From a virus (Duplodnaviria > Caudoviricetes), in IMG/VR virus record IMGVR_UViG_3300036785_000484, positions 1-63,688 of that record: DNA of 63,688 bases, one strand, 5' to 3'. Shown piece by piece: positions 19,265 through 53,959 of the stretch. The notes below the pieces were generated by a model. That model worked only from the letters and a program-made list of their open reading frames with translations. It was not told where the DNA came from and did not search any database. The position numbers were made by a program, and so were the translations under genes. Position 1 is the stretch's first letter; each line of letters begins with the position of its first letter.

Positions 19265-19464
19265 CGGCGAATCCTAAGCGTGTCGCGCCGGGATTCCGGG
19301 GAGGCACGGCCTTAGAGTGATCGCACGTCTAGCGGTCTTCCGAGGCAAAGGCTGCCGCCCGGCACGGGCGGAATCACTGGCCGACATGCCCTATTCGAGT
19401 CCCGGCACGGGCACCCTCTTCCACCGTGCCCTCATGGCACTCGAAAACGAAGGACGCTCAAATC

Positions 19465-31188: not shown

Positions 31189-31203
31189 TGCGAGCATCGG
31201 ACC

Positions 31204-31856: not shown

Positions 31857-31862
31857 CCCGTC

Positions 31863-33809: not shown

Positions 33810-33831
33810 TACAGTAGTATGATAGTACCCC

Positions 33832-34455: not shown

Positions 34456-35132
34456 GCAACAAGTCCAAGCGGAACGGTCGTTCGAGGGTCTCCGAGGGTC
34501 AGCCCCGCTCCCCGGGTCACCGGAGCGACACGTCGTCCCGGTATTCGTTCGGTGGGGCGGACCCGTACAGCCGGAAGCCGCCGACGCTTCAGTTCGGGGA
34601 TCGGGGCGAGCTGACCCCGCGCACCATCGAACAGGCCAACCTGAGCCCGGAGGAGAAGCGGCTGGCCCGCGAGATGCTGCTGGTTCAGGCCGCGTACCTG
34701 GAGATCTACGACTGCCTGGACTACCCCACCGACCCGGACGGGCACACCGTGGACCTGTCCGCTATCCACATGACCCAGCCGAAGATCGCCATCGCCTGGA
34801 CGCTGGCCCTGAACGGTTTCCGGCGCACCGAGCATCAGTACATCAAGAAGCGGCATTATTCCGCGCCCGGTGTGGTCGAGGGCGCGTACACCTGGGTCGA
34901 CACTCGGAGCGGGGAGACCGCCGCCGAGGAACTGAGGCCCGATCACCGGCCCGATGATCCCCATCTGCCCCCGGACACCCGGAGGCTGGCCGCTCAGCGT
35001 GACGGGGCTCCCGGCCAGCAGCCGCCCGACCTGTGGAGTGTGACCGTGGTGCCGACGTTTGAAGGCTTTGACGACGACGACCGGCGCGCATCCCCGGCTG
35101 TCGAGGGTCCATCGGGCACCATAACGCCATGA
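34452..35132 (+). CDS. DUF2744-like minor tail-region protein
   Basis: Position after the hub gene; LALNGFRR...IKKR...GAYTWV. Confidence 0.6.
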   Translation: MSNKSKRNGRSRVSEGQPRSPGHRSDTSSRYSFGGADPYSRKPPTLQFGDRGELTPRTIEQANLSPEEKRLAREMLLVQAAYLEIYDCLDYPTDPDGHTVDLSAIHMTQPKIAIAWTLALNGFRRTEHQYIKKRHYSAPGVVEGAYTWVDTRSGETAAEELRPDHRPDDPHLPPDTRRLAAQRDGAPGQQPPDLWSVTVVPTFEGFDDDDRRASPAVEGPSGTITP

Positions 35133-37003: not shown

Positions 37004-37021
37004 CCCCGATGGAGGCCGAGG

Positions 37022-38146: not shown

Positions 38147-38157
38147 AGGGGCCTCTG

Positions 38158-41100
38158 ATGGGTGCCACCGGGGCCATCGACCTTTACGCGGGCCGGAACT
38201 CGATCAGCGGGTCGAACATCTTCGACCTCAACAAATCGCCGCTCAGTCAGCTCAACGCAGGCACCGAGGATGTCATCGGCGAGCACGGCCAGAACGTCGG
38301 TGACGCGTTGTGGAAATCCGTTCAGATGATCATCGACTCCATCCTCGGCCTGGACCCCAGCAGCATGTCCGGGAAGACCGCCAACGACATCATCACGATG
38401 TTCGAGAACGTCTGGAACTTCCTGGGTGAGCTGAACCCGACCAGCCCGACCTTCGATCCGCTGGCCGCGATCGTCACCTTCATCAACAGCATGCTCAAGC
38501 CGTCCAACCTGATCGCGACCCTGGTGGCTGACGCCACCCATTCCGGTGGGGTGACCGGGTTCATCCCGCTGGAGAACCTGGCGCTGGACGCCATTGAAGG
38601 TGCGGTCGGCAGCGTTCAGCAGCTGATCGACGCCATCATGAATTTCTTCGGCTTCGGGGCGGGCACCGCCTCCTACGACGAAGTGCAGAAGCTGTTCGGA
38701 TTCTTCTACCAGTTCCTCGGTGCGCCGTCCGGCTGGCTGTCCGACCTCACCGACGCGGGCGCGTCGATCATCGGCTTCATCGAACACCAGCTGATGCCGA
38801 CCAACCTGCTGACCGGCTTCGACATGTTCATGCTGCACTGGCGGACCGGCCTGAACCTGGTGCTCGACCCCAGCTTCGAAACGACGCTGGCGTGGCCCGG
38901 CGCGATCATGGGCGTGCAGTCCACCGACCACGCGCGCACCGGCACCCACTCAATGAAGATCACCTCCGACGGCACCACCCGCGACGGGCACCTGCTGCGC
39001 AACCAGGTCGGTCCCCTGACGCAGTACGTGAAGTCCGGGCAGACCTTCGACGTCGAAGCGTTCGTCTACCCGGACCCCGCCACCGCCACCGCCGGGACCG
39101 GTCATCTCGACCTGGTGATGATCGCCACCGAGTCCACCGGCAGCGACCCCAGCTCCGAGGTGTCGGCCACCCGCATCGTCATGCCGACCACCGGCCAGTG
39201 GACGTGGATGCGCGGCAAGGTCACCGTGCCCAGCACCTACAACTACGACACCGCCGACTTCGTCTTCCGGATCGAAAGCGACATCCCCACCGGCGACATC
39301 GTCTACATCGACGACATCGCGGTGATCGACACCTCGGCGCAGCAGGACATCCTGCAGGCCATCCTTAACTCGGTCGGCCTGGGCGGCATCCTCAACGTCA
39401 CCCAGCTGGACACGTTCTTCCACAACCTCACCGCGATGCTGGGCCTACCGACGCTGGCGGATGTCTCGTTCGATATCGAGAACGCGATCAACAACTTCGT
39501 CAACAACATGCTGGACCCCAGCGTTTACTTCAGCAACCTGACCGCGATGCTGGGCCTGCCGACCCTTTCCGATGTCGCGTTCGATGTGACCACCGCGATC
39601 CAGACGTTCATCACCGACATGCTGCACCCGGCCAACCTGCTGGCGCCGTTGGAGCAGCTGACCTCCGGGGTCTTCACCATCCCGCAGCTCAACATCCCCG
39701 GACTGGACGCGACGAAGATCATCTCGGGTATCTTCGGCACCGGGCAAATCCCCAACCTGGACGCGTCCAAGATCATCTCCGGTGTCCTGAACGCTTTGCA
39801 GATTCCCGGCCTCGATGCGACGAAGATCATCACCGGGACGTTCACGGCGGGTCAGATCCCGAGTCTGCTTGCCGGGTGGGGGAAGACCGTCGATGCCACG
39901 CTGATGGCGAATGTCACCGTCGCGAACACGGCGGCGTGGCTGACCGCGACCGATCAGAACATCTCCGACTACATCTATCAGGCGATCCACGGCGGCACGA
40001 CCACCGGCAACGCACTGACCACCATCAAGACTTCGCTGCAGAACATTCCCGGCCTCAACATCGTCAGCGCGGTCCTGGCGTCCATCATCCCGGCGCTTGA
40101 CGCGACGAAGATCACCACCGGCATCTTCACCACGGGCCAGATCCCGAATCTGGATGCGTCCAAAATCGTGACCGGCGTGCTCAACGCGCTGCAGATTCCG
40201 GGTCTGGATGCCTCCAAGATCATCTCCGGAGTGGTTGCGGCGGCGAGCATCCCGAATATCACCAAGGCCATGTCAACCGACATGCAGTCCATCATCGACA
40301 ACGTTTATCAGGCCAGCTTTGGCGGTAGCTCCACCGGCAACACCCTGGCCTCGGTTAAGACCTCGCTGCTGAGTATTCCTGGCGTCAATATCATTTCGTC
40401 GTTGCTGGCCTCGGTGATCCCCGCGCTCGATGCCACCAAGATCACCACCGGTACCTTCCCCCAATCCATGCTCAATATCACCAGCATCGCGGGCTCAATC
40501 ATCACCGGCACCGTCGCGGCAGCGAACATCGCCGGTTTGGACGCCACCAAAATCATCAGCGGCATCTTCACGACCGGCCAGATACCCAACCTTGACGCCT
40601 CCAAAATCGTTACCGGTGTGCTCAACGCCTTACAGATACCGGGTTTGGACGCGACCAAAATTATCAGCGGTGTAGTGGCGGCGGCTCAGATCCCGAACAT
40701 CACCGCAGCGATGAGCACCGACATCCAGGCTTTGGTCGACGGCGCATTCCAGGCCATGCACGGGGGTACGTCAACGGGGAACCTGGTATCGACATTCAAA
40801 ACGAGTCTGCTCAACATTCCCGGCGCGAACATCATCTCGGCCATCCTGGCGTCCATCGTCCCCGGCCTCGATGCGACGAAGATCGTCACCGGGACGTTCC
40901 CGCAGTCAATGCTCAGCATCACGTCGATAGCGGGCAGCATCATCACCGGCACCGTCGCGGCGGCCAACATCGCTGGCCTCGACGCCACCAAGATCATTTC
41001 GGGCATTTTTACGACCGGTCAGATACCGAACTTGGACGCCTCGAAGATCGTGTCCGGCGTCCTCAACGCCTTACAGATCCCCGGTTTGGATGCCACGAAA

Positions 41101-44100
41101 ATTACCAGCGGTATCTTCACGACCGGCCAGATACCGAACCTCGACGCGTCGAAGATTGTGTCGGGAGTGCTGAACGCGCTACAGGTCCCCGGCTTGGATG
41201 CCTCCAAGATCATCAGCGGCACGTTCGCCAACTCCATGTCGCCCGGTCTGTTGCCGCAATCACTATGGAAAACCAGCACGACCGCGGGTACCAACCTGGT
41301 GCTCAGTCCCGACTTCGAGGACAACACAGTCGCAAGGACTGCGAGCAGCTTCAGTTCCCCCGCTAACGCGACATTCACCTACTCGACCACCCAAGCCCAC
41401 GGCGGCACACAGTCGTACGCCATCCAAACCGCATCGGACGTATCGAGCCAATGGGATGTCATGTGGCTGCCCGGCAGCAACTACGGGACCAACTCCTTCG
41501 ACCAAATGACTCGGTGCCAGGCCGGTCAATGGTTCTACATGGAGCTATACATCAGGGCCAAGTCCACCAATACGGCGACGAGTGGTTTAGCTAACTTCGG
41601 GTTGTTCCTCGCCAACTCCGCGTCCGGCGGTTCCACCCAGACAGCTATTTGGACTCAAACCCCGGCAGTGACGTCGATCTCCACTACCGGGTGGACGAAA
41701 ATGTCCGGGTGGGTGCAGGTTCCGGTTGGGTATGACCTGTGTTGCGCGATGCTCACGTTCAGTAATCAGAACGTCGGGGCGCAGACCTACTACATAGACG
41801 ACGCTCGGTGTGTTGAGGAAACACAGCCGCAGTCGATCACCGACCTGTTCAGCCAGGGTCTTTACGGGGCGAGCAGACCGGCCATCCCGGTGGTTTTCGA
41901 CGCGGTCGGTGCCGGTGTCCAATTAGATAGCACGGTCGTCACCGAGAACCACACCATCACCGGCCCGAACGCCGTGGTGTTCGTGTCGACGTACGATACG
42001 CCAGGCACTCTCACCGTGAGGATCGGCGGGTCGTCCGGCCCGCTGATGACGCAAGTCGCCTCTGTGAGCTATTCTTCGTCGCCCGTCGACTACCTCTTCG
42101 CGTTCGTCCTGCAGAACGCACCCACCGGAGTCCAGCAGATCTATGCGTCGGCATCGAACGCTGTAGCGATGTCCATCAACTCCGAGTCCTTCAGCAGCGC
42201 GGTGTCGTTCGGCACCCCAGTCACCGCCTTTAGTAATGCGGCGACCACGCCGTCCCTGACGGTGGGCGGCACCAATACCTACGACCGGGTGGTGGCGGCA
42301 TTCGGCGGATACTCGACCAGCTTCACCGGGTTCAATCAGACGCAGCGATCCAACCAGCCGTTCACCCCCGGCGCTGGGCTTCCGCTGGTGATCGGCGACG
42401 CCCCCGGCGCGGCCAGCGTCAACTTCTCCTGCACAAATTCAAACCCGTGGGGCGGCATCGCCATCCCGATCAGCGGCACCCCAGCCAGCTCCACGAATAC
42501 CGGCAACCCGGTCAGCTCCCTGTTCGCCGGGCTGCAGGACATGATGACCCGGATCTACAGCCAGCCCACCTTGGGCAGTTTCATCCCAGGGCTTAATGTG
42601 CAGAGCCCTATCGGTGGCGTACTCACCGACGTGACCACGGCGTTCCAGACCACTGTCGACAAGACCATCCAGGGCGTCACGGGTAGTACCGGCAGCGGCA
42701 ACGCGGTCGGCCAGCTTGCGTCGGTGTTCAACCAGGCGATGGGCTACCTCGGGTTCAACTTCAACAACCAGACCACCCCGCCCACCAACTCGGTCGCGGG
42801 TACCACCGGCACCAACCAGACCAGCTTGAACAACCGGGCGGTGACCAAGCCGTCCTACAACGCGATCGACCCCACCGCCGATTCGGTGTTTCCGCTGTCC
42901 AGCATTAGCGGCTCGTCGTCGGCCACCACCGTCTCGGTCACCGCCGCCCAGAGCGCGATGGGAATCATCGGCACCCCCGATGCCGGGGTCAAGCAGAGCG
43001 TGGAGTGGCTGGGTTACGGTCCGGCCACCATCACCGGCGTCTACTACAACATTTACTCGATGAACGGCTCCACCGGGGCGCTGACCCTGGTGTACGCGTC
43101 ACCTAATGTCGTGGGCAACATCACTCTCGGTGGATCGTCGCCGACCTGGGTCAACCTCGCGATCCCGGCTGCCAACTACCTCACCGCGCAGCAGAACACC
43201 TACTACGCCATGGAGGTGGTCGTCGCGGGCACCGGCACCTACAGCCTCGCCGGGATCAACCACGCCTGGCTACCCAGCGCGGGCCACCCCACCGCGTACC
43301 CGAAGCAACTCGCCGTCACGCGGGCCATCAGCGCCGGGACCATCGCCATCGACGCTTCCCCGGCTGGAAACAACGTTGCGGTCGCGGGGGCAGCCACCCA
43401 GAACACCAACGTCACCATCGCCGCCACCGCGACCGCACTTGTCGTCGGAGTCACCGTCGTCACGGCAGCAAACACCACCAGCGCACCGACGATTTCATGC
43501 AAGATCGGCAGCACAACCCTCGCCCAGCTCGGTGTGTATCAGTCCGGTCCCATCGGCGGGGTCTGCTCTACCGTCGCCCTGTATGGGCTGATCAACCCGC
43601 CCACCGGGGCACAGACCATTACCACCACCGCAACACCGAACCCGCTCGCCAGTGACGCCGCCTACCTCAGCGTCTGTGTCGACACGTACACGAACGTCGC
43701 GTCGTTCGGCACGGCGCAAACAGCAAACGGGTCAACGGCAGCGGCGTCACACACCGTGACCAGCGGTGCGACAGGTGGCCGCATCGTCCAGATGTTCGGC
43801 GTGGTGCAGGCGAACGTGTCTCTGACGTTGAGCGCCTACAACCAAACTCAGCGCCAAAACGTCGCCAGCGGTGCCAGCAGCTACGGCTCGTGTGTGATGG
43901 GTGACGCGGCGGGGGCAGCGAGCGTCACCATCTCGGCGACGATCTCGTCGGCGGCGGCCTGGGGCTCGGTCGCCGTCCCGCTCAACCCGGCACCGGCCGC
44001 GCCGCCCAGCAGCATCCCCAGCCCCACCTGGTCGCAGACCGTGCCATGGATGGCGCTGTCCGGCGCGGCCGCGGCCACGACCTATGCACCACTTGTGACG

Positions 44101-44664
44101 CAGTACGCGGCGGCGGGCTCCTACACCTACAGCGTCCCGTCGTGGATGAAAGCGGGGAACCACTTCGACATCCTGGTGGTCGGCGCGGGTATGGGCGGCC
44201 AGGGCGGCGGCGGTCCATCCAACGGTGTCGGCGGTGGTGCCGGAATCTGGGCGACGCCGGTGACCCTCGTCTATGGCGTCGACATCCCCACCAGCACCAC
44301 CAACTTCACCGTCACCATCGGCGCGGGCGGGATAGGCGGTGCTGGCGGCGGTGGCTTTCCCAGCGGCAGTGCGGGCGCGCAATCGTCGGTGGCCATGACC
44401 GGGCACACCACCATCGCCGCCAATGGCGGCTCCTCGGCAGCAGGCTCCACTACCGGGCTCTCACCCGGTAACCAGCCCCTGACGGGCGCCGACGGTTACG
44501 CCGGGATCTACTACGGCGGTGGAACACAACCCGCCGCCGGAGCCAACGGGAACGCGCCGGGCGGCGGCGGCGGCGGCGGTATCTGGGGTTACTTCAACGC
44601 GCTGGCCGCAGGTCCTGGTGGCAAGGGCGGCGATGGTGGAGTCTGGATCCGCGCCTACATGTAA
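38158..44664 (+). CDS. very large minor tail / receptor-binding protein (2168 aa)
   Basis: Many IPxLDA(S/T)KI repeats; two CBM-like NLVxxPxFE...YIDD domains; two related beta modules; Gly-rich C-terminus. Confidence 0.88.
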   Translation: MGATGAIDLYAGRNSISGSNIFDLNKSPLSQLNAGTEDVIGEHGQNVGDALWKSVQMIIDSILGLDPSSMSGKTANDIITMFENVWNFLGELNPTSPTFDPLAAIVTFINSMLKPSNLIATLVADATHSGGVTGFIPLENLALDAIEGAVGSVQQLIDAIMNFFGFGAGTASYDEVQKLFGFFYQFLGAPSGWLSDLTDAGASIIGFIEHQLMPTNLLTGFDMFMLHWRTGLNLVLDPSFETTLAWPGAIMGVQSTDHARTGTHSMKITSDGTTRDGHLLRNQVGPLTQYVKSGQTFDVEAFVYPDPATATAGTGHLDLVMIATESTGSDPSSEVSATRIVMPTTGQWTWMRGKVTVPSTYNYDTADFVFRIESDIPTGDIVYIDDIAVIDTSAQQDILQAILNSVGLGGILNVTQLDTFFHNLTAMLGLPTLADVSFDIENAINNFVNNMLDPSVYFSNLTAMLGLPTLSDVAFDVTTAIQTFITDMLHPANLLAPLEQLTSGVFTIPQLNIPGLDATKIISGIFGTGQIPNLDASKIISGVLNALQIPGLDATKIITGTFTAGQIPSLLAGWGKTVDATLMANVTVANTAAWLTATDQNISDYIYQAIHGGTTTGNALTTIKTSLQNIPGLNIVSAVLASIIPALDATKITTGIFTTGQIPNLDASKIVTGVLNALQIPGLDASKIISGVVAAASIPNITKAMSTDMQSIIDNVYQASFGGSSTGNTLASVKTSLLSIPGVNIISSLLASVIPALDATKITTGTFPQSMLNITSIAGSIITGTVAAANIAGLDATKIISGIFTTGQIPNLDASKIVTGVLNALQIPGLDATKIISGVVAAAQIPNITAAMSTDIQALVDGAFQAMHGGTSTGNLVSTFKTSLLNIPGANIISAILASIVPGLDATKIVTGTFPQSMLSITSIAGSIITGTVAAANIAGLDATKIISGIFTTGQIPNLDASKIVSGVLNALQIPGLDATKITSGIFTTGQIPNLDASKIVSGVLNALQVPGLDASKIISGTFANSMSPGLLPQSLWKTSTTAGTNLVLSPDFEDNTVARTASSFSSPANATFTYSTTQAHGGTQSYAIQTASDVSSQWDVMWLPGSNYGTNSFDQMTRCQAGQWFYMELYIRAKSTNTATSGLANFGLFLANSASGGSTQTAIWTQTPAVTSISTTGWTKMSGWVQVPVGYDLCCAMLTFSNQNVGAQTYYIDDARCVEETQPQSITDLFSQGLYGASRPAIPVVFDAVGAGVQLDSTVVTENHTITGPNAVVFVSTYDTPGTLTVRIGGSSGPLMTQVASVSYSSSPVDYLFAFVLQNAPTGVQQIYASASNAVAMSINSESFSSAVSFGTPVTAFSNAATTPSLTVGGTNTYDRVVAAFGGYSTSFTGFNQTQRSNQPFTPGAGLPLVIGDAPGAASVNFSCTNSNPWGGIAIPISGTPASSTNTGNPVSSLFAGLQDMMTRIYSQPTLGSFIPGLNVQSPIGGVLTDVTTAFQTTVDKTIQGVTGSTGSGNAVGQLASVFNQAMGYLGFNFNNQTTPPTNSVAGTTGTNQTSLNNRAVTKPSYNAIDPTADSVFPLSSISGSSSATTVSVTAAQSAMGIIGTPDAGVKQSVEWLGYGPATITGVYYNIYSMNGSTGALTLVYASPNVVGNITLGGSSPTWVNLAIPAANYLTAQQNTYYAMEVVVAGTGTYSLAGINHAWLPSAGHPTAYPKQLAVTRAISAGTIAIDASPAGNNVAVAGAATQNTNVTIAATATALVVGVTVVTAANTTSAPTISCKIGSTTLAQLGVYQSGPIGGVCSTVALYGLINPPTGAQTITTTATPNPLASDAAYLSVCVDTYTNVASFGTAQTANGSTAAASHTVTSGATGGRIVQMFGVVQANVSLTLSAYNQTQRQNVASGASSYGSCVMGDAAGAASVTISATISSAAAWGSVAVPLNPAPAAPPSSIPSPTWSQTVPWMALSGAAAATTYAPLVTQYAAAGSYTYSVPSWMKAGNHFDILVVGAGMGGQGGGGPSNGVGGGAGIWATPVTLVYGVDIPTSTTNFTVTIGAGGIGGAGGGGFPSGSAGAQSSVAMTGHTTIAANGGSSAAGSTTGLSPGNQPLTGADGYAGIYYGGGTQPAAGANGNAPGGGGGGGIWGYFNALAAGPGGKGGDGGVWIRAYM
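39690..41230 (+). repeat. intragenic LDA(S/T)KI repeats with a 441-bp higher-order period
   Basis: GIFTTGQIPNLDASKIV starts at 40120, 40561 and 41002. Confidence 0.9.
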
Positions 44665-44673
44665 AGGAGAGAG

Positions 44674-44994
44674 ATGGGAAGCAACCAAGTCGTTCCGTCA
44701 ACGCCGCACACGTCGTGGCTCATCAACGTCAACCCGCCCAATACCGACGACCCGACCCAGCCGTCCATCCTGGACGTGTACGACCTGATGGCCACACTGC
44801 CCTCGGGTGGCTACCGGGTGGAGTGGCTGTCCTACCCCGACGAGGAGCATCCCGGCGACCTTGCCTACCTACTGAGCCTCTACAAGAACAGTCAGGCTCA
44901 GCAGGCGCACATCGGCGACTACGTGGTGTTCGACGGCGAGAACGCGCGCCGCTACGACGCCACCGAGTACGAAGCGACGTTCGCCCCGGCATAA
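44674..44994 (+). CDS. hypothetical tail-region protein
   Basis: RBS AAAGGAG. Confidence 0.75.
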   Translation: MGSNQVVPSTPHTSWLINVNPPNTDDPTQPSILDVYDLMATLPSGGYRVEWLSYPDEEHPGDLAYLLSLYKNSQAQQAHIGDYVVFDGENARRYDATEYEATFAPA

Positions 44995-45031
44995 ATTCAC
45001 AACAAGGAGGATCAGATGAAGGAGAGAACAC

Positions 45032-45298
45032 ATGGGTGACGAGCACACCAACGGATCGTCAGCCGCTCAGCCGTCGATGAAGGAGCGGCTCACACGGCTG
45101 GAGCAGGAGTCGGCGCTGCAGGCGCAGACCATTCAGCGTCTCGCTGCCGCGCTGGGCGCGTTTCTGGCCAGCGCGATGCAGCCGCAGCTGAAAGATCAGC
45201 TGACCGAGCAGCTGCTCGGCGGCGGCGGGTCGCCGTTGCAGATGCCGATCCCCAAGCTCAACGATGTCAACGCGGTAGAGGCGGTGTCACATGGCTGA
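45032..45298 (+). CDS. hypothetical coiled-coil protein
   Basis: RBS AAGGAG. Confidence 0.7.
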   Translation: MGDEHTNGSSAAQPSMKERLTRLEQESALQAQTIQRLAAALGAFLASAMQPQLKDQLTEQLLGGGGSPLQMPIPKLNDVNAVEAVSHG

Positions 45299-45557
45299 GC
45301 AGACCAAACCTAAGATCCCCGTTCCGGTCCCGGCGGAAATCCCGATGCCACGGGATGTTCCCACGCCGACACCGCCGGAGTACGCGACGGGCGCGGTCAA
45401 GCAGGACCCAACCACGCTCGCCGTCGCGGTCCGCACCGATATTCCCGACGTCGACTACAGCCACGACTGGGGTGTGATGACGATTGAGCACGGCGGCCAT
45501 TACGCCACCTGGGATGAGGTGTCGACCTGGGATGACCTGGCCGTCACCGCCCGTTAG
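45291..45557 (+). CDS. hypothetical tail-region protein
   Basis: GAVKQDP..AVAVRT..WGVMT..GG; overlaps the upstream gene. Confidence 0.7.
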   Translation: MAEQTKPKIPVPVPAEIPMPRDVPTPTPPEYATGAVKQDPTTLAVAVRTDIPDVDYSHDWGVMTIEHGGHYATWDEVSTWDDLAVTAR

Positions 45558-47221
45558 AACAGTGCGAAGAATCCGCTCGGCGACGCCGCCGGGGCGGGCG
45601 GGACGTTGAGGTTGTCCCAGATGGTGTTGTTCACGGTGATAGTGCCGCTGCTGGCGCCGCCGAACACCTCCAGCTCCAGCTGGGTGATATCCAAGATGGT
45701 GTTCGTCCAGGTCATGTAGTTCGTCCAGGTGACACCGTCTGGGCTGGCATCGAAATAAATCACGTTCGCGGTGTGTCGAATACGCAGCCACGCGAAACTG
45801 GTGGAGTTGTACGCGTAGAAGTTCGACACGATGTTGCTGTTGTTGATGAACACGCTGGCGGACATGTACAGGGCGGTGCCGCTGTCGTTTCGAGCCCACT
45901 CCACATAATTCAGGCCATTGGTACTGGTGAGCCGGAAAGGGGCGTACAGGGTGGTGGCAGCCTGGCCGAACTGGACAACCTGGACATAAACCGCCGACTC
46001 GGTGAGGTCATATACGGCAACGGACGTGACGATGCCGCTCCCGGAAGCGGCCGTGAGCAGCACCAGTTGCCCACCGGACACGGAGGCGTTGGAGCCCCAC
46101 CCCGCCCACTTGGAGACGTCCTGGGTCGCGAAGTTGTCGGTGAAGGTGGAGATCTTCGGACCCGGCGGGGTGTTGACGTTGTCCCAGATGGTGTTGGGAA
46201 CAGTAATGGTTCCGGTGGTCTGTCCGCCGAGCAGCGCGACATACATATTGGTCATGCCGGTGGTGCCGCTGACGGTCCAACTGCCGCAGTTCGTCCAGGT
46301 CAGACAGTCCGGGCTGGCATCGAAATAGACCACGCCCCCGGTGTGGCGAAACCGCAGCCAGGCAAAAGTGACGGGATCGTAGGTGTAAAAGGCGCTGACA
46401 TAGACCTGGGCTGCGTTGACGTACACAGAAATTGCGATCGCGTTGCCATTGGTGGGGCTGGGAATATAGCCCCACTCCATATAGTCGCCGTAACCATTGT
46501 TGGGGGAAGCGAGCCGGAACGGCACGTAGTTGCTGGTAGCACACTGGGAGAACTGAAGAGCCCGGACGTAAATAGACGACTCGGTCAGATCGTAAACCGC
46601 GTTACTGGTTATCTGCCCCGGACTAGAGGGGGCAGCGACCAACGACAATTGCTGATTGACTACCGAAGCGTTGGCGCCCCACCCCGTCCATTTCGTGGTG
46701 TCCTGGGTGGCGAAGCTGTCGCTGAAGGTGGACACCTTCGGCGGTGCCGTGTAGGTGACGGTGAGGTCGACCTGGTCGAGTGAGAAGACGGAGCTTGTTG
46801 TGCCGCTGTGGGTGGCTGTCACCAGCACCCGCAGACCATTGAACACCTGCAGGTCGGTCGGTGTGCCCACCGTCAATGTGTCCGTGTGCGCCGACGTACT
46901 GAGTGTCGCGGTCGCCGCCGAGCCGATGGCGGTGCCGGTAGAATCCTGCAGCTGCACCGTAATCGAAGTCCAACGCGAAGTAGTAGCAACCAAACTTCGT
47001 ATCGCGGCGCTGACGCTGCTGATTGTCGCGCCCATCACGGGACCGGTGAACGTGTACCCGCCGATAACGATGGTGCCGACGCCGCCGGAGGCCGCATTGG
47101 TGAAGGTGGCGTAGGTGGCCGGGTTTGTGCCTACCGCGCCGTCCCAGGCGTTGGCGGTGCTGGCCCATGTTGTGCCGCTGGTGGAGACAACACTGGTGCC
47201 GCGCGACTGAGCGGTGGCCAT
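45554..47221 (-). CDS. adhesin-like protein with two tandem lectin-like beta-sandwich domains
   Basis: Duplicated K(V/I)STF.D.FATQD..KW.GWG ... FAWLR.RHT..V.YFDASPD..TWTN ... WDN; ends GFFALF. Confidence 0.75.
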   Translation of the reverse strand: MATAQSRGTSVVSTSGTTWASTANAWDGAVGTNPATYATFTNAASGGVGTIVIGGYTFTGPVMGATISSVSAAIRSLVATTSRWTSITVQLQDSTGTAIGSAATATLSTSAHTDTLTVGTPTDLQVFNGLRVLVTATHSGTTSSVFSLDQVDLTVTYTAPPKVSTFSDSFATQDTTKWTGWGANASVVNQQLSLVAAPSSPGQITSNAVYDLTESSIYVRALQFSQCATSNYVPFRLASPNNGYGDYMEWGYIPSPTNGNAIAISVYVNAAQVYVSAFYTYDPVTFAWLRFRHTGGVVYFDASPDCLTWTNCGSWTVSGTTGMTNMYVALLGGQTTGTITVPNTIWDNVNTPPGPKISTFTDNFATQDVSKWAGWGSNASVSGGQLVLLTAASGSGIVTSVAVYDLTESAVYVQVVQFGQAATTLYAPFRLTSTNGLNYVEWARNDSGTALYMSASVFINNSNIVSNFYAYNSTSFAWLRIRHTANVIYFDASPDGVTWTNYMTWTNTILDITQLELEVFGGASSGTITVNNTIWDNLNVPPAPAASPSGFFALF

Positions 47222-47703
47222 CAGTAACTGTTGACCGCGACGCAGACGTACTTGGCGGCGACCTCGTCGTAGATGAAACCCATGATGTGTGTCTTGCCGA
47301 CCGTGGTGGAGCTGATCATCGCGGCGTTATCGGAGCTCTGGAACTGAGTTCCGGGTGCGAAGGTTCTCGACGTGCCGTTGTCCTTCACCCGCACGATCAG
47401 CTTGTAGCCCGCCGCCGGGCCGGTCACCGTGATGCCGGTGAGGTTGACCGCGAGCGCGGTGATGTTCAGCTGGTCGTTGCCGCACGCGGTCAGCGACGGG
47501 GTGGCCGAGGACGCGGTCGACGTGACATTGGGCGCATCGGCCTTGGAAGCCCAGGCGGAGCCGGTGGAGGTGAGCACGAAGCCGGTCGTGCCCGCAGCGG
47601 AGACCCCGGTGCCGCCGTTGGCCATCGGCAGGACGTTGGCGACCTCAGCGGTCAGGTCGATGCTTTCTACGACCTGCCGGTCGGCGACCTTGGTGACAGC
47701 CAT
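47221..47703 (-). CDS. fibre tip/adaptor protein
   Basis: LPMANGGTG fibre repeat; SSATP...LIVRVKDNGTSR...GFIYD...CVAV; RBS AGGAG. Confidence 0.7.
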   Translation of the reverse strand: MAVTKVADRQVVESIDLTAEVANVLPMANGGTGVSAAGTTGFVLTSTGSAWASKADAPNVTSTASSATPSLTACGNDQLNITALAVNLTGITVTGPAAGYKLIVRVKDNGTSRTFAPGTQFQSSDNAAMISSTTVGKTHIMGFIYDEVAAKYVCVAVNSY

Positions 47704-47708
47704 AGCTC

Positions 47709-49325
47709 CTACTTGAAGTAACTGACCCTCACTTTGTCGCCCGAGAGCGGCGCGGTGAGGTACGTGATGGTCGCGCCCGAAATGGTGTAATCATTGCCCG
47801 CGCCGGGCTCCTGCTGCAGCCCGTTCAAGTACACCTCCTCGGTCCCCGCGATGGGGGTGTTGGCCAGGGTGAAGGTGACGTTGGAGCCGTTCACCGAGCC
47901 GGACGGCGTTTCTCGGGTGATCCGGTTGGTGGCGTTCAGGTAATCGGCACCGGCGGTGTTGCTGGCCGCGCTGATGGCGGTGCCGTTGCCTTTCAGCAGG
48001 CCGGTGATGCTGGTCTGCACAGTGATGGCCGGGGTGGTGGTGGCTGTGGCCACGGTGCCCGCGAACCCGTTGGCGGAGGCGACCGACACGCTGGTGACCG
48101 TGCCGCCACCGGCACCGGCGTTGGTGATGCTGTACGCGGCGTCCCACGTCCCGGCGGTGGTGCCGATGTTGGTGACGGTGGCCAGCAGCTGCGAGGACGC
48201 GGCCATCGTGATGAGCAGGCTGCCGCCGTTCATGTTGACGGTGATGGTGCCGGTGGAGCGGTTGGTGATCCAGAACGATTGACCGGCGACCAGGGTGGTG
48301 GCGTTGGGCAGTACCAGGGTCTGGTTCAAGGTGCCGGTGAACTGGGTCAGGCCGGGAGATGCGACGGTCAGCGTGGTGGTGGTACCGCCGGTGGCGATGC
48401 TCTGCACCGTCTCGATCAGGCTGTTGAACGCGGCATTGCCGTTGGCGTCGCGGAAAGCGACCGTCGATGCGGTGGACAAGGCCGTCATCGGGACGGCGGT
48501 CGGGGTGGCGGCGGAGCCGGTGGCGTTGGCGATGACGCTGTTGGCGGCCAGGTTCGCCATCTTGGCCAGCGTCACGGCGGCGGCGGCGATGGTGGTGGCG
48601 TTCGACCCGGCAGCGGCGGTGACATCGCCGGTCAGCGCGGCGCGACCCAGCTGGTTACCGGTCTTCGTCAACGACGAGTCGACGGTGACCTCCCCGGCGC
48701 CGGAAAACATCGTCCACTGCATGTTGTTGGTGCCGTAGACGAATCCCGACCCCGACGACGGGACGACGACGGTGTAGCCGCTGCCCGCCGTGATCGACGT
48801 GCCGTTCTCCACGAACACGTAGTCCCCGGCCGGGTTCTCGCTGCCGGACTGCTCGGGGGCGCGGGCCACCGTCAGGTTGGTGGTGTTGGCCGAGCACTTG
48901 TAGAGGCCGTTTGCTGGTTGGCTGGTGTAGTTTCCCGCGCCGCCCGCCGCGCCGGTCGCTGCGGGCGCGTTCATGATCAGGATGTAGTCGTTGACGGCGA
49001 TGGCGACACCGTCGACCGTGGTGCCGCCGATCTGCGTGACGCTGCCCGAGGAGATCGTCAACGTCTCCGTCACGGTCGCGGCCCGCGCCGACGGCTTGGT
49101 GTCCAGGCCCTGCGCCACACTGTCGACGTAGCCCTTGGTGGCCAGCGACGTGGACGAGGTGGGGGTGATACCCGCCTGCTCCCCGGTGAACGCGCGGGTG
49201 CCGTCGGCCTTGATGTAGGAGGTGGCGAGCTGGCCGTCGGTGATCCCCGCCGCAGCGGCCAGCTGGGTGGTGGTGATGGTGGCGGAGCGTATCTGCTTGC
49301 CACCGTCAATCTGCTGCTGGGTCAT
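47709..49325 (-). CDS. long fibre-like protein
   Basis: ATKGYVDSVAQGLDTK, VFVENG, QWTMFSGAG, LTGDVT, VTLAKM, VTSVSV, YLNGLQQEPG..DYT; RBS AAAGG. Confidence 0.8.
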   Translation of the reverse strand: MTQQQIDGGKQIRSATITTTQLAAAAGITDGQLATSYIKADGTRAFTGEQAGITPTSSTSLATKGYVDSVAQGLDTKPSARAATVTETLTISSGSVTQIGGTTVDGVAIAVNDYILIMNAPAATGAAGGAGNYTSQPANGLYKCSANTTNLTVARAPEQSGSENPAGDYVFVENGTSITAGSGYTVVVPSSGSGFVYGTNNMQWTMFSGAGEVTVDSSLTKTGNQLGRAALTGDVTAAAGSNATTIAAAAVTLAKMANLAANSVIANATGSAATPTAVPMTALSTASTVAFRDANGNAAFNSLIETVQSIATGGTTTTLTVASPGLTQFTGTLNQTLVLPNATTLVAGQSFWITNRSTGTITVNMNGGSLLITMAASSQLLATVTNIGTTAGTWDAAYSITNAGAGGGTVTSVSVASANGFAGTVATATTTPAITVQTSITGLLKGNGTAISAASNTAGADYLNATNRITRETPSGSVNGSNVTFTLANTPIAGTEEVYLNGLQQEPGAGNDYTISGATITYLTAPLSGDKVRVSYFK

Positions 49326-49336
49326 GGGTCAGCCTT

Positions 49337-49747
49337 TCACTGGACGATGTAGTCAACGCTCAGGTCGTCGGTGGGTTGTGGTGCTACCGAGAACGTAATC
49401 TGGCTGGCGCCGGTCTCGGTGTATCCCGAGCCGCGCGTCTCACGCAGCCCGTTCCGGTAGACCGCCGTGGTATCGGTGCGGTAGGGCTGCGCGGTATCGA
49501 AGTTCGTGTTGACCCCGTTTTTGACGCCCGAAGGTGCTTCTCCGACAACAGGATTGCCGGTACCGGGCGGTCCGGGTTCTCCGGGTGGCCCGGGCGGACC
49601 GGCCGGTCCGCCCCCGGAGACGGTGACCCCGAACACCGGGACATCGACGGTGACCTGCGGGACAGGCACCTGGACGGTGATGTCGAACTGCGGAACCTCG
49701 ACCGTGATCTCGCCGATGGCCTGGTCGGTGACGATCTCATCCGTCAT
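49337..49747 (-). CDS. collagen-like connector protein
   Basis: GPAGPPGPPGEPGPPG; C-terminal ExPSGxxNGxNxxF...NGL domain shared with 47709..49325. Confidence 0.75.
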   Translation of the reverse strand: MTDEIVTDQAIGEITVEVPQFDITVQVPVPQVTVDVPVFGVTVSGGGPAGPPGPPGEPGPPGTGNPVVGEAPSGVKNGVNTNFDTAQPYRTDTTAVYRNGLRETRGSGYTETGASQITFSVAPQPTDDLSVDYIVQ

Positions 49748-50196
49748 GGCAGCCGGGTGACGTCAGCGTCCAGCGTGATCGTGCCCTGCACCAGGGTGAT
49801 GACCGGGTCTGGGTTAGTCGGGTCGCTGATCTGGCAGTCCCATACCCCGGTGTAGGTCTGGATCTGCTGGGTGGCGCCGGTCTGGGGGTTGGTGCTTCTC
49901 CGTATGGTCCCGGTCCCGGCCAGCCGGGCGGTGTCGACTGACGATAAAACGACAGCAGCAGGTCCACTGCCGACCGGGGGCGTGATCAGAAACGACGCGT
50001 CGATCGGGGTGGAAGGGTTACGGTCCTTACGTACCTGAGCGTTCCAGTCCATGCCCGTGACGAGCGAGGTCGGCGCGGTGATCTGAATGGTGAGGGTGTC
50101 GCCGCCGTAGGCGGCGATGTCGACCTCCTGAGGCCTGGTGTCGATGGTCTCCGCAGCCGCTACAGGCTCAACTTCCAGACGCTGCTCAGGGGACAT
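49744..50196 (-). CDS. BppU-N-like fibre anchoring protein
   Basis: DIAAYGGDT...AQVR...GVWDCQI...TLVQGTITLDADVTR; start could be 50205. Confidence 0.65.
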   Translation of the reverse strand: MSPEQRLEVEPVAAAETIDTRPQEVDIAAYGGDTLTIQITAPTSLVTGMDWNAQVRKDRNPSTPIDASFLITPPVGSGPAAVVLSSVDTARLAGTGTIRRSTNPQTGATQQIQTYTGVWDCQISDPTNPDPVITLVQGTITLDADVTRLP

Positions 50197-50203
50197 AGGG
50201 CAC

Positions 50204-50282
50204 ATGGTCGCAGATTCAGACGGGGCCGGATCATTGACACGCCAGCAATCGACCGGGCAGCACCTGCGCTGTGTGCGACCAT
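50204..50282. promoter_or_regulatory. divergent promoter pair (TGCGACCAT on both strands) flanking a GACAC box
   Basis: TGCGACCAT at 50274-50282(+) and 50212-50204(-), 6-7 nt from the start codons; GACAC at 50236. Confidence 0.6.
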
Positions 50283-50288
50283 CAGGCC

Positions 50289-52586
50289 GTGTCACATTAC
50301 ACACCCGATGACATCGCGCTGGGTATCATCGCCGAGGGACAGCGGCGCGGGGTCACCCAGAAGGGCATCCAGATCGCCATCTCCACCGGCCTGGTGGAGA
50401 GCAACTTGACGATGTACGCCAACCACGCGGACCCGGAAAGCCTCACCTACCCGCACGACGCCATCGGCTCCGATGCCAACAGTGTCGGGGTGTTCCAGCA
50501 GCGCGACCCGTGGTGGGGCAACTGCTATGAGCGCATGCACGTCCCCGACAGCTCCGGCCTGTTCTTCGACTCGCTGGTGGATCAGCGAATCGGCGGCGAT
50601 GACTACAACACCAACGCCACCACCCCCGGCGGCTGGGCGCAGATGGTGCAGCAGAGCGCATACCCGGACCGCTACGACGAACGGTATCCGGAGGCGTGTG
50701 AGATCTATGACCGCCTGGTAGGTCAAACAACGGGAGGAGCCCCGCTCGTGGGTGAGAAGGTACTGGCCTATGACCACAGCATCGTGCCGCAGGAGACCGG
50801 CTACTGGTGCGGCCCGGCTAGCGCGCAGGTCTGCCTGAACATCCGGGGCATCTATGTCCCCGAATCCCAACTAGCCGAGGAGTGCGGCACCGACCAGGGC
50901 GGCACCGACTATGTGGCGCTGATCGAACGGTGCCTGGACCCGAGACTCCCGGAAGCCAACTACACCAGCGTCGACGCCCCCCACGACCCACCCACCGCCG
51001 ACGAGAAGGACCGGCTGTGGGACGGCATCCTGCGGTCCATCAACTCCGGGTACGGGATCGTGATGAACTGGGTCGCCCCACCGGCGAACTACCCGGTTGG
51101 GATCAAAGGGTCACAGTCCCCCAGCTACGGCGGCGGGACCATCTACCACTACGTCACCTGCGCCGGTTACGACGACAACCCCGCTCAGCGGGCGGTGTGG
51201 ATCGCCGACTCCGGTTTTCAGCCGTTCGGCTACTGGATGAGCTTCGACCAGTGCGCCACCCTGATCCCACCCAAAGCAGCGTGCTACGCCAACCTGCCCC
51301 ACCCCACCTCGGAGGCACCGGTGCCTGACTACGTCCGACTCGACTACGAGCAGAAATGCGGACCCATCGACCCGGCCACCGGGTACGGCACCGGCTGGCC
51401 GCAGCTGGGTGTCAACGAGCAGGGTCAGAACCTGTACCTGGTGGACGCGCTGTCCGACATCCTGCATCTGCTGGAGCAGGGCAAGTCGTCGGTGCACTGG
51501 CGCGCTGAGTACGCCGCGCCCAAGACCCCGCTCGACTACGCGAAGCTGGACTACGAGCAGAACGCCGGACCGGTCGGCGAAGACGGCTACGGGCACGGCT
51601 GGCCGCAGCTGGGTGGCCGTAGCATCACCGACGCGGTCGCGCACATCAAGAACACCCTGGCGGGTGGTGAGCCCCCTTTCCCCCCTAACCCCGGCGGAGG
51701 GGGGTCCGGGCGGTTAGCGATCCTGACGTTCGCCGGGACCTGGGCGGCACCGGGGGTCGGGTTCCCCAGCGATGTGGCTCAGGCCTGCGCCGACGTGGCT
51801 GACGAGGTCCCCGTCCAGGCACCGTGGAGCTTCGGTAAGCCGGTGAGCTACGCCGAATCTGTGAGGATCGGTGTGGACTGGGCGGTGGACTGGACCCTGA
51901 CCCACGCCGACCGACCGGTCATCCTCGGCGGATACAGCCAGGGCGGCGAGGCGGCGGCCCGGGTCCGGATGGAGTTCGAACCCGGCGGTCGGCTCGCGCA
52001 GCTGCACCCCAACTATGTCGCCGGGTACGTGTTCGGGAACCCGTCCCGCCACCTGGAGAAGACGTTCCACGGCGGGCCGCCGACCGACGGTGAAGGGATC
52101 GCCCAGTTCCGGCTGCCGCTGCTCGGGGACGAGTGGTGCGAACTGGTCGACACCTACGACATGTACGCCGGGGTGCCCGCCACCCTGACCGGGGAAATCA
52201 TGCGGGACGTGTACACGCTCTGCACCGAACTGGAGCTCGGCGGCGGTTTCGAGGAGACATTCGTCGCCAACTGCCTCGCGCTGCTCGGCAACCTCGACGG
52301 GGACGCCTACGACGACGTGAAACGCGGCATGTACCGGCACGGCATCGACATCGAGGAAGCGCAGCTGCTCCCCGAGGCCGTGATCAACCCACTCACGGAC
52401 CGGCTGATCTCCGTCAAAGGCATCGCCGCCGCCATCCAGGCGTGCGTGCTGGGGATCCAGTTCATCTGCTGGCAGCCACCCACCGCCCCGCACATAGAAT
52501 ATGGAATCAGAGAAGTTTTCCCGGGCCAAACCTACGTTCAGCTGGCCATACAGCACGTACATCATTGGGCCGCAGTGCGGGTGTAG
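50289..52586 (+). CDS. lysin A - lysin B fusion (lysozyme-like + C39-like peptidase + 2 wall-binding repeats + alpha/beta-hydrolase)
   Basis: LVES...SVGVFQQR; QETGYWCGPAS...HY...IADSG; two GWPQLG repeats; GYSQG and FGNP in one uninterrupted frame. Confidence 0.88.
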   Translation: MSHYTPDDIALGIIAEGQRRGVTQKGIQIAISTGLVESNLTMYANHADPESLTYPHDAIGSDANSVGVFQQRDPWWGNCYERMHVPDSSGLFFDSLVDQRIGGDDYNTNATTPGGWAQMVQQSAYPDRYDERYPEACEIYDRLVGQTTGGAPLVGEKVLAYDHSIVPQETGYWCGPASAQVCLNIRGIYVPESQLAEECGTDQGGTDYVALIERCLDPRLPEANYTSVDAPHDPPTADEKDRLWDGILRSINSGYGIVMNWVAPPANYPVGIKGSQSPSYGGGTIYHYVTCAGYDDNPAQRAVWIADSGFQPFGYWMSFDQCATLIPPKAACYANLPHPTSEAPVPDYVRLDYEQKCGPIDPATGYGTGWPQLGVNEQGQNLYLVDALSDILHLLEQGKSSVHWRAEYAAPKTPLDYAKLDYEQNAGPVGEDGYGHGWPQLGGRSITDAVAHIKNTLAGGEPPFPPNPGGGGSGRLAILTFAGTWAAPGVGFPSDVAQACADVADEVPVQAPWSFGKPVSYAESVRIGVDWAVDWTLTHADRPVILGGYSQGGEAAARVRMEFEPGGRLAQLHPNYVAGYVFGNPSRHLEKTFHGGPPTDGEGIAQFRLPLLGDEWCELVDTYDMYAGVPATLTGEIMRDVYTLCTELELGGGFEETFVANCLALLGNLDGDAYDDVKRGMYRHGIDIEEAQLLPEAVINPLTDRLISVKGIAAAIQACVLGIQFICWQPPTAPHIEYGIREVFPGQTYVQLAIQHVHHWAAVRV

Positions 52587-52596
52587 TATCACATTT

Positions 52597-53169
52597 GTGT
52601 CAGCTGAGGAATGGCGGTCGGTAGTCGGCTGGGAGGACCTGTACGAAGTCAGCTCACTTGGCCGGGTACGTGTTCTCGACAGGATCATCCAACGGCATGG
52701 TCGGCCACAGAAGCATGGCGGGAATCTCGGCGGCAGCTATGTGAAGCGCGGTCATCTGCTCTCGCCATATAGGACACCGCCGATGGACTACCTCACCGTG
52801 AACTTGGAGCGGGGGGATGAAAAGCGCCGCGTGCGCATTCACACGCTGGTGATCGAAGCGTTTGTCGGGCCACGGCCAGGCGGCCTTGAGGCGTGTCACG
52901 GTCCCGGCGGCTCAGACGATAACAGCCGTCCGAATCTCAGATGGGACACCAGACGCGAGAATATGTTGGACGAGGTACGTCACGGCACCCACCACAACGC
53001 CGTGAAGACGCACTGCAAGCGCAACCATGAGTTCACGCCCGAGAACACCAGGATCAATCCCACCAGCGGGTCGCGCCAATGTCGGCGCTGTGTCTACGAG
53101 GGGAATAAGGCGCGTATCTTGGCTAAGGCGTCGGCGGTTCTGCCGGGGGTGGCGGCGGAGCCGGGGTGA
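52597..53169 (+). CDS. NUMOD4-HNH homing endonuclease
   Basis: EEWRSVVGWEDLYEVSSLGRVR; IHTLVIEAFVG..CH..NLRW; KTHCKRNH. Confidence 0.92.
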   Translation: MSAEEWRSVVGWEDLYEVSSLGRVRVLDRIIQRHGRPQKHGGNLGGSYVKRGHLLSPYRTPPMDYLTVNLERGDEKRRVRIHTLVIEAFVGPRPGGLEACHGPGGSDDNSRPNLRWDTRRENMLDEVRHGTHHNAVKTHCKRNHEFTPENTRINPTSGSRQCRRCVYEGNKARILAKASAVLPGVAAEPG

Positions 53170-53590
53170 GACCCGGCGGTGGCCATTGATCCTGAGGGGT
53201 CGGACCCGTTATCGCCCACGGCACACCCCACCCATCCGGGATCACATCGGGGTCGGGACGGCCAGGGTGATCCGGCTGGCCGGGGAACACCCGCCAGCAC
53301 TGCCACATCTGCGCGATGGGGATGAACCCGCCCCATTCACAGTGAATGTGGCCCTCGATGGTGAAATTGAAGTCGCAGTAGCCGCCACCGGCGCCGAGGA
53401 CGTTGACGGCGGTCCCCACACCGGGGCAGAGCAGGAGTGCCGCCGCACCGGGAGTCAGGCCGGGGCTGATGCCCGGCTCACCGCCGAGACCGTTCCCGCT
53501 ACCTCCCGGGTCACCCGACGCAGTCGGGGCAGGCAGCAGGATGACCAGTCCAGCCAGGGCCGCGAAGGCAAGCCTGGCTGGACTGGTCAT
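53123..53590 (-). CDS. secreted Cys/Pro-rich protein
   Basis: Sec signal peptide ending PTASG-DP; 4 Cys; Pro-rich tail; leaderless after GATACT. Confidence 0.7.
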   Translation of the reverse strand: MTSPARLAFAALAGLVILLPAPTASGDPGGSGNGLGGEPGISPGLTPGAAALLLCPGVGTAVNVLGAGGGYCDFNFTIEGHIHCEWGGFIPIAQMWQCWRVFPGQPDHPGRPDPDVIPDGWGVPWAITGPTPQDQWPPPGLTPAPPPPPAEPPTP

Positions 53591-53650
53591 CCCCGAAGTA
53601 TCAGCGCGCCATCCACACCGGCCGGGTTACCACGCCGACAATGTAAGCCC

Positions 53651-53959
53651 ATGACCGAACCCGAGCCCAAGCCGCCGTTGCTGCCCCGCTGGTTCGCCAC
53701 CAAGGGACCACAACCCGGCTGGCTGGCCGAGTACTGGTCGATGATCCTGGCGGTGCTCAGCGCGGTGGTGGTGCTGCTCAACACCCTCGTCACCGTGCAG
53801 GGGATGAGCGTCACGACCGAGAAATGGGTGAACGCCGTGGTGGCGTGGGTCGCGGCGGGCGCGCTGTTCCTGCAGAGCCGGTATAAGAACGTGGGCGCTA
53901 TCGCGAAGTGGCGCGCCCAGGTGCGTGCCGAGGAGGCCGAGAAGCCGACGGAGGGCTAG
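53651..53959 (+). CDS. holin-like membrane protein
   Basis: Two TM segments and a charged C-terminus; downstream of the lysin. Confidence 0.6.
   Translation: MTEPEPKPPLLPRWFATKGPQPGWLAEYWSMILAVLSAVVVLLNTLVTVQGMSVTTEKWVNAVVAWVAAGALFLQSRYKNVGAIAKWRAQVRAEEAEKPTEG

Follow-up and report, generated by a model that had tools for sequence, protein, structure and literature searches.

A single-chain LysA-LysB lysin of an uncultured actinophage and a putative recoding site at the lysA-lysB junction of its relatives

We analysed a 63,688-nucleotide (nt) stretch of viral DNA (IMG/VR record IMGVR_UViG_3300036785_000484; here "the window", meaning the whole stretch) and found that one of its genes, on the forward strand at 50271..52586, is the intact gene of a single-polypeptide lysin of an uncultured, siphovirus-type soil actinophage. 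On one natural chain of 771 amino acids (aa) it unites two predicted peptidoglycan hydrolases, a likely wall anchor and a predicted mycolate esterase, that is, the parts of a Lysin A (LysA) followed by that of a Lysin B (LysB), which to our knowledge have always been described as separate proteins acting in sequence. The LysA-LysB fusion is genuine and rare in databases, and very likely the gene is that of a real and functional fused lysin. Among known lysis enzymes its architecture is a new variant. In most relatives that carry both parts, lysB is in the -1 frame and a conserved slippery heptamer precedes it; these relatives seem to point to an undescribed recoding site in phage lysis genes.

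The fused gene, its domains and its spread

The gene is a single open reading frame (ORF) that opens with GTG at 50271 on the + strand, and its translation contains every motif named in an earlier, sequence-only reading of the window, which had proposed a lysin A-lysin B fusion in one stop-free frame. LVES lies at residue 41, GYWCGP at 177, YHYV at 292, IADSG at 311 and GWPQLG at both 375 and 443; EPPF at 467 is followed by the linker PPNPGGGGSG, GYSQG begins at 554 (51930-51944, just where that reading had placed it), and FGNP is also present. Its start, given as 50289, stood in part. An in-frame GTG is found there, which would yield 765 aa and lines up with the initiator Met of relatives that begin MPHYTPD and similar, so that either GTG may be used, but the longest frame opens upstream, at 50271.

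The lysozyme-like domain expected at the N-terminus (residues 16-145; 50316..50705, +) is borne out by matches to solved GH184 muramidases (8b2h, E 3.5e-23; 8b2e, E 1.3e-17), with the LVESN and GVFQQR stretches identical or nearly identical to 8b2h in the alignment; Glu43 of LVES is encoded at 50397-50399. Both structures are tabulated as GH184 in PMC10394673. PHROG 700 (endolysin) matches residues 8-158, and tape-measure PHROGs match the same region. The next domain, a C39-like cysteine peptidase (residues 162-352; 50754..51326, +), agrees with the proposal as well: Pfam Peptidase_C39_2 (PF13529) covers residues 171-314 with 54 bits against a cut-off of 24, PHROG 1519 ('endolysin') spans residues 162-352 with an E-value of 1.7e-107, and Cys180 (50808-50810), His293 (51147-51149) and Asp313 are invariant across 15 aligned relatives. 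No Pfam domain other than C39 was found in the protein with the local Pfam copy. Residues 353-464 (51327..51662, +) consist of two repeats of about 68 aa, each of the form (L)DYEQ..GP..GYG.GWPQLG followed by a helix, which are also direct repeats at the DNA level (51327-51411 and 51534-51615, 74-88% identity). They are likely the cell-wall-binding module of LysA. NCBIfam gave no match for the whole protein or for the repeat region, and PF27131 is precomputed on relatives that have LysA only.

A Pro/Gly linker between LysA and LysB (residues 465-480; 51663..51710, +) follows, whose residues 465-478 have a predicted local distance difference test (pLDDT) below 50 in a full-length AlphaFold2 (AF2) model. 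The C-terminal domain (51711..52577, +) is a Lysin B domain with the fold of a cutinase-like alpha/beta hydrolase. Residues 481-768 match PHROG 102, a LysB-type family, with an E-value of 2e-63. When a profile built from 23 LysB domains, some of them from named-type phages, was compared with the PDB, Lysin B of phage D29 (3HC7) came first (E 1.9e-19), ahead of an acetyl-xylan esterase (E 1.5e-3). An AF2 model of residues 475-771 is of high confidence (pLDDT 91.4; predicted TM-score 0.90) and its top Foldseek match is again 3HC7 (E 6.4e-8, TM-score 0.67 on the target), followed by acetyl-xylan esterases, cutinases, MSMEG_6394 and Rv3802c. Ser556 (51936-51938, within GYSQG, residues 554-558), Asp630 (52158-52160) and His741 (52491-52493) are invariant in the 23 LysB domains, and the Ser and Asp regions align to 3HC7 in the profile search. 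Profile and fold thus concur with the earlier assignment of this domain as LysB and with its expected cutinase/LysB fold. In known phages, LysB cuts mycolic acids off arabinogalactan. Since PHROG 102 matches the window at one locus only (51711-52577), there is no separate lysB within it, as the sequence-only reading had said; nor is there any ATG, GTG or TTG between the linker and the first LysB strand, so that lysB here is not a gene with a start of its own. A separate lysB gene is, then, an organisational habit of the Lysin B family and no requirement of the enzyme.

The junction was checked on assembled contigs from two sequencing runs, X1 and X2, a level at which rare variants would escape notice. 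From run X1, probably the source sample, an 82,987-nt contig made by another assembler covers 50880-52700 with no difference and no gap and, at a depth of about 12, has no indel at the junction. A 730-nt contig from run X2, of another soil study, covers 51446-52172 with 39 substitutions; its sole indel near the junction is a 3-nt insertion after 51695, which keeps the frame, and the variant corresponds to locus L002 in IMG/VR, fused over residues 137-771 at 92% identity. The stretch 51660-51720, which the sequence-only reading had singled out for checking, is free of any stop or indel that breaks the frame. An identical second assembly together with an in-frame variant indicates that the fused frame is no assembly slip. 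It is true that the junction is rich in homopolymers (C5 T3 C6) and that close relatives are one frame off at this point, as would be expected if a 1-nt assembly or sequencing error in the C/T run had joined two ordinary genes, but besides the independent assembly and the divergent variant of another study there are L002, L005 and eight further fused proteins, and a start codon is missing from the frame downstream; we regard such an error as extremely improbable.

Fused homologues form 11 protein clusters, all of them metagenomic (P0001-P0008, P0020, P0023 and P0025), with identities down to ~45-57%. P0003-P0008 (804-814 aa) were found at 54-57% identity and 99% coverage in a word-indexed protein search, P0020 is the protein of L005, and P0002 is fused with a weakly GH19-like N-terminus. 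When longer proteins were searched with the LysB domain only, these 11 clusters came back and nothing else. The fusion is therefore not confined to the window contig, and fused forms occur in at least two clades. Among 50,697 phage records, 2165 match some part of the protein and none of these holds at least 80% of it in one place; the best matches (tblastn) are broken in two, one piece in a gene annotated 'lysin A' and the other in its 'lysin B' neighbour, the LysB pieces falling in genes annotated lysin B in Mycobacterium and Gordonia phages. Such fusions proving common would have refuted the sequence-only reading; with 11 metagenomic clusters against no fusion in the 50,697 phage records, they are rare in databases. 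Megablast of the lysin gene against phages gave 22 partial matches, all restricted to the C39 region, with 73-76% DNA identity to Mycobacterium phage lysin A, and the window from 30000 to 50000 gave none; by this phage megablast no cultured close relative of the window phage exists.

Beyond this family, a HMMER scan of 1.84 billion representatives yielded 668 LysB-like proteins. A Pfam scan of 24 long proteins among the best 150 of these matches showed that the metagenomic clusters P0144, P0147 and P0182 join a glycosidase-like domain to a LysB/cutinase domain, which means that fusions of a peptidoglycan hydrolase with LysB also occur in other lineages, outside the window family. In P0144, P0147/P0269 and P0182 (500-838 aa) the partner is an Rv2525c-like or GH25 domain. 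Neither a natural LysA-LysB fusion nor a frameshift in lysis genes turned up in full-text searches of the accessible literature, a scope that leaves aside subscription journals and supplements, and both topics are likewise absent from the accessible text of a Gordonia lysis-cassette study, a 2018 review of mycobacteriophage lysis enzymes, an Arthrobacter phage paper and Payne and Hatfull 2012 (PMC3314691). The last describes 25 LysA organisations in 224 phages and names phages without lysB; in its available text the words 'fused' and 'frameshift' do not occur, and no organisation with LysB appended appears among the 224 lysins.

Several relatives differ from the window in their LysA part. The N-terminal glycosidase module is swapped among close relatives: L002 has a different N-terminus (5380-6000), although from residue 137 on it shares 92% identity with the window. 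In P0023 and P0025 one wall-binding repeat sits before the C39 domain. We considered a GH25-like N-terminal domain for P0020/L005, P0023 and P0025 and discarded it, Pfam giving no support at E 1e-3 or better; GH19 for the N-terminus of P0002 scored 22.1 bits, under the Pfam cut-off of 25.5, and is kept as a weak likeness only. One LysA-only relative (P0028, 64% identity) is filed in NCBI under the metagenome-assembled genome (MAG) of a Rhodopila sp., an alphaproteobacterium; mis-binning of a phage contig is the probable reason.

The junction in split relatives

Among the close relatives of the LysA part, many measure only 471-504 aa (P0009-P0019, 73-80% identity). We retrieved the junction DNA from viral and metagenome contigs and compared the frames by tblastn. 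A LysB match was found in 54 loci, 33 of which, the window included, carry both parts of the family; the two parts share one frame in three (the window, L002 and L005), and in the other 30 lysB lies in the -1 frame of lysA. These 30 split loci represent 20 distinct junction sequences.

The 8-nt sequence CCCCCTTT is invariant in all 20 distinct junctions, whose flanking columns agree in 7-19 of the 20, one GG excepted. Read in the lysA frame it makes up C_CCT_TTC (13 junctions) or C_CCT_TTA (7 junctions), both of the slippery pattern X_XXY_YYZ, and a heptamer of this kind thus stands at the ORF junction in the 20 split sequences and in the window alike. CCCUUUA and CCCUUUC are named as slippery heptamers in papers on eukaryotic viruses. 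The codons involved are rare: in the genes of the window, CCT accounts for 5.9% of Pro codons and TTA for 1.0% of Leu codons. On both strands of the whole window CCCCCTTT occurs once, exactly at the lysin junction (51672-51679), where the heptamer C_CCT_TTC in its slippery register occupies 51674..51680 (+).

The lysB frame of the split loci looks dependent on this site. Between the upstream stop and the first conserved strand, 17 of the 20 junctions offer lysB no start codon (ATG, GTG or TTG) in its own frame; the other three are L084 and L085, in which the strand opens with a GTG codon, and L112, which has a TTG. Seven of the 20 have a -1-frame stop one codon ahead of the motif, which leaves the motif as the only point of entry to the lysB frame. 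Past the motif, every one of the junctions codes in the -1 frame for a Pro/Gly linker of 9-29 codons similar to the linker of the fused forms, and the zero-frame tails (5 to >41 codons) are mutually unrelated. In seven close relatives, 6 of 10 variable columns before the motif fall at zero-frame third positions; the 11 codons after it contain four variable columns, of which three occupy -1-frame third positions and none a zero-frame one. The same seven distinct DNAs encode two distinct peptides in the -1 frame, as against seven in the zero frame. Selection, as far as these substitutions can tell, switches frame at the heptamer in the split relatives. As a control we inspected seven lysB genes of sequenced Mycobacterium-type genomes, and all seven have their own start, an N-terminal extension and no motif.

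One split locus is interrupted. In L006 an ORF for a NUMOD4/HNH homing endonuclease (6846-7367) lies inside lysA, between wall-binding repeats one and two, and repeat 2 opens a short ORF of its own that runs into the heptamer and the -1-frame lysB. A frameshift product of this locus would consist of repeat 2 and LysB only.

Expression and origin of the fusion

Given the conserved heptamer and the -1 frame of lysB, the fused protein is probably what the whole group normally makes: in the split relatives, where lysB lacks its own start and follows C_CCU_UUC/A at the end of lysA, ribosomes that terminate as usual would yield LysA, and those that shift by -1 a LysA-LysB fusion. In the lineage of the window, a change of one nucleotide just past the heptamer would have brought lysB into frame and fixed the long product, so that the window gene may be seen as a hard-wired descendant that still carries the heptamer and is read straight through without a shift. 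The predicted product, a GH184-like muramidase and a C39-like peptidase on one chain with the two-repeat wall module, the Pro/Gly linker and the LysB serine esterase, would be released through a holin at the end of infection, and a single wall-anchored molecule could then cut both the peptidoglycan and the mycolyl-arabinogalactan link.

In the tree built from LysB domains, the window, L002 and P0002 are nested, with strong support, in split forms (L004, L105, L112), and well-supported branches force at least two changes of state; the second fused group comprises 10 rows together with the split L007. The motif is gone from older fused lineages, namely P0002, P0003-P0008 and P0025 (at the protein level, where P-P-F/L is absent) and L005 (at the DNA level), and by comparison the window's heptamer looks like a recent relic. 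Taking these observations together, we give a probability of roughly 65% to the following reading: in the whole group of uncultured soil actinophages LysB would never be free and would exist only as a C-terminal extension of the endolysin, made by programmed -1 frameshifting at C_CCU_UUC/A, which would set a fixed ratio of LysA to LysA-LysB, and several lineages, that of the window included, would have become hard-wired independently. We consider a frameshift origin of the window fusion itself about equally probable; both the frameshifting and the direction of evolution are what we infer from comparison of the junctions.

Several observations weigh against this reading. We found no conserved stimulatory RNA structure 3' of the heptamer in single-sequence folds or in two RNAalifold runs: folding z-scores range from -2.6 to +1.5 and are mostly near zero, the RNAalifold covariation terms are about 0, and hairpins are common in G+C-rich DNA. 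In the 13 junctions that end in C, the TGA of the zero frame shares bases with the CTG of the LTF strand (CTGA), two junctions have a GTG there and one has TTGA, so that at those junctions termination-reinitiation with a free LysB is possible; at the junctions ending in A this idea fails. A -1 relation of adjacent genes also arises from ordinary 4-nt overlaps, and many of the 30 split loci, drawn from a small number of related soil projects, do not count as independent. As a linear contig estimated at about 65% completeness, the window leaves room for a second lysB elsewhere in the genome. Finally, the full-length AF2 model is poor (pLDDT 62.6); we used it for the linker positions only, and the packing of the domains is unreadable in it.

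Two alternatives concern translation at the junction. In one of them, which we treat as a tentative possibility, the window gene would itself yield two proteins, mostly the 771-aa fusion and, by a -1 slip at C_CCT_TTC, a 472-aa product with the LysA domains only, mirroring the relatives. The heptamer is indeed unchanged and a -1-frame TAA follows two codons on (51686..51688, +); the closest fused variant (L002/run X2) differs there and yet keeps a stop (TGA), and off-frame stops are rare in DNA of 65% G+C. The window and L002 are, however, 95% identical in LysB, so that their shared stop counts as one observation, no stimulatory RNA structure was found in the folds mentioned above, and the motif is lost in P0002, P0003-P0008 and P0025, L005 encoding PPPF with non-slippery codons. 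This loss in the older fused lineages means that selection apparently does not keep slippage once lysB is in frame. In the other, which seems to us rather unlikely, split lysB would be an ordinary gene, expressed by termination-reinitiation or from a non-canonical start, and the window fusion a one-off unlinked to frameshifting. In 14 of the 20 distinct junctions the zero-frame stop overlaps the LTF Leu codon as CTGA, ending on the 4th nt from the start of that codon, which would suit this alternative, as would the GTG one codon earlier in L084 and L085, the TTGA of L112, the lack of a conserved stimulator and the fact that known LysB proteins begin a few residues ahead of the LTF strand. The CTGA overlap, however, is forced by the codons Leu(CTG)-Thr(ACN), and an ordinary gene leaves unexplained the invariance of CCCCCTTT with its rare codons, the always-open -1-frame Pro/Gly linker and the switch in synonymous positions. 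It fails at six junctions at least (L003, L006, L083, L104, L108 and L110), which have no start and whose zero-frame stop lies at least 55 nt inside LysB, and it sits badly with fusions having arisen at the same spot in at least two clades.

Programmed frameshifting in the split relatives, followed by hard-wiring in the window lineage, remains our preferred reading, and two further alternatives bear on the fate and the target of the product. The fusion might be processed after translation into free LysA and LysB, separate enzymes as in known phages, with its C39-like peptidase, for instance, cutting the linker at the glycine run. Cleavage behind double-glycine motifs is characteristic of classical C39 peptidases, and a GG-rich run is present in the linker of the window and of most relatives. 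This is pure conjecture, though, and we think it very unlikely, as Gly/Pro-rich linkers are common without cleavage, the linker sequences vary widely, and C39-like domains in phage LysA proteins are held to be peptidases that act on peptidoglycan (Payne and Hatfull 2012, PMC3314691). Alternatively, the C-terminal domain could be a cutinase-family esterase for another substrate, such as another lipid or an acetylated polysaccharide, in which case the host need not be a mycolic-acid bacterium. The low identities (with 3HC7, 19% in the fold alignment; with LysB proteins from cultured phages, ~30-37%) and the acetyl-xylan esterases and cutinases that rank close behind 3HC7 in both searches would allow this. 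The lead of 3HC7 in the profile search is nonetheless wide, and the tblastn matches in phages are annotated lysin B genes of Mycobacterium and Gordonia phages. Moreover, in a scan of the genomes of 185,579 species with lysB, all 25 matches, the closest only 45% identical, fall in Mycobacterium, Mycolicibacterium or MAGs of Actinomycetes. Another substrate is accordingly improbable, and the hosts are most likely mycolic-acid bacteria, Mycobacterium or its kin.

Genome context and comparison with known lysis enzymes

Upstream of the lysin the window has a terminase gene (9966-11636), then genes for a portal, a protease and the major head protein (19426-20931), the tape measure (25931-30049) and minor tail proteins through 44664. 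The last of the named tail genes (38158-44664, +) encodes a minor tail protein of 2168 aa with seven matched stretches of phrog_7565, which are internal repeats. Ahead of the terminase, a 438-aa protein (7000-8316, +) matches a phage galactosyl-transferase PHROG in its C-terminal half (E 3.8e-28). After the tail genes come five reverse-strand genes (45554-50304), the lysin, a NUMOD4/HNH endonuclease gene and a small candidate holin with two putative transmembrane segments. The reverse-strand genes include one for a collagen-like GPPGPPGEPGPPG protein (49337-49747) and two for large Thr/Gly/Ala-rich proteins of 538 and 555 aa with weak matches to PHROGs of unknown function; the first of them, starting at 50304 at the latest, is divergent from the lysin start and may overlap it. 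The homing-endonuclease-like gene (52597..53169, +; PHROG 1492, E 3e-67; Pfam NUMOD4 and HNH_3) has a longest ORF that opens at 52501, overlapping the end of the lysin, and a look-alike endonuclease ORF follows lysB in L003 (8382-8927); homing endonucleases seem to travel with this lysis module. The candidate holin (106 aa; 53639..53959, +) is the C-terminal part of an ORF at 53027-53959 and was picked by its position and by two hydrophobic stretches seen by eye; it has no PHROG or Pfam match.

Lysin A and Lysin B are enzyme classes under development as protein drugs against mycobacteria. Fused lysins supply ready linkers and domain orders for engineering, and if the group-wide reading given above is true, they would be a natural blueprint for a tethered anti-mycobacterial lysin with three activities. 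The comparative data argue that the tethered arrangement is used, and kept by selection, in several lineages. Likewise, the pattern at the junctions suggests a conserved frameshift site outside phage tail genes, which, if true, would be the first case of recoding known from a phage lysis cassette and, if confirmed, would add lysis timing or stoichiometry to the phage processes controlled by recoding. Gene callers mis-annotate such sites as truncated or start-less lysB.

The closest known counterpart of the esterase is Lysin B of phage D29 (gp12, 3HC7), with which the window domain shares the cutinase-like fold, the GYSQG elbow, the Ser-Asp-His triad and a place beside the endolysin function in the lysis cassette. 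In the window, however, the esterase is the C-terminal domain of the endolysin and not a gene with its own start, it is only 19% identical to 3HC7 in the fold alignment, and it has an extra helical insert at about residues 165-260 of the domain model. LysB of phage Ms6 (PMC8309991) also tethers an outer-layer esterase to a peptidoglycan-binding module on one chain; the tether in the window is a whole endolysin, with two catalytic domains and repeats, rather than PG_binding_1. As in the modular Lysin A proteins of mycobacteriophages (PMC3314691; N5 C39-like type), a glycosidase and C-terminal repeats stand on one chain and domains are shuffled among relatives, and the C39-like peptidase of the window reaches 69% identity, in its best segment, to LysA of cultured Mycobacterium phages. 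The differences lie in the order, glycosidase-peptidase-repeats instead of the usual peptidase-glycosidase/amidase-C-terminal domain, in the GH184 type of the glycosidase and in the appended LysB domain.

With respect to expression, long and short isoforms with shared domains are known from the embedded start of Ms6 lysA (PMC3111421) and from staphylococcal phage phi2638A (PMC12203907), but those arise from internal starts and are N-terminally truncated, whereas the isoforms proposed here would differ at the C-terminus, through recoding. The nearest parallels are the -1 frameshifts of the phage tail assembly chaperone (G/GT) and of dnaX. Like them, the relatives have an X_XXY_YYZ heptamer at the end of the upstream ORF and a downstream ORF without a start, their two products would share the N-terminus, and hard-wired fusions in some lineages lend comparative support. 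Unlike them, the putative site lies in lysis genes and comes without a stimulatory structure found in our folds, and the window itself, with its two parts already in one frame, needs no frameshift.

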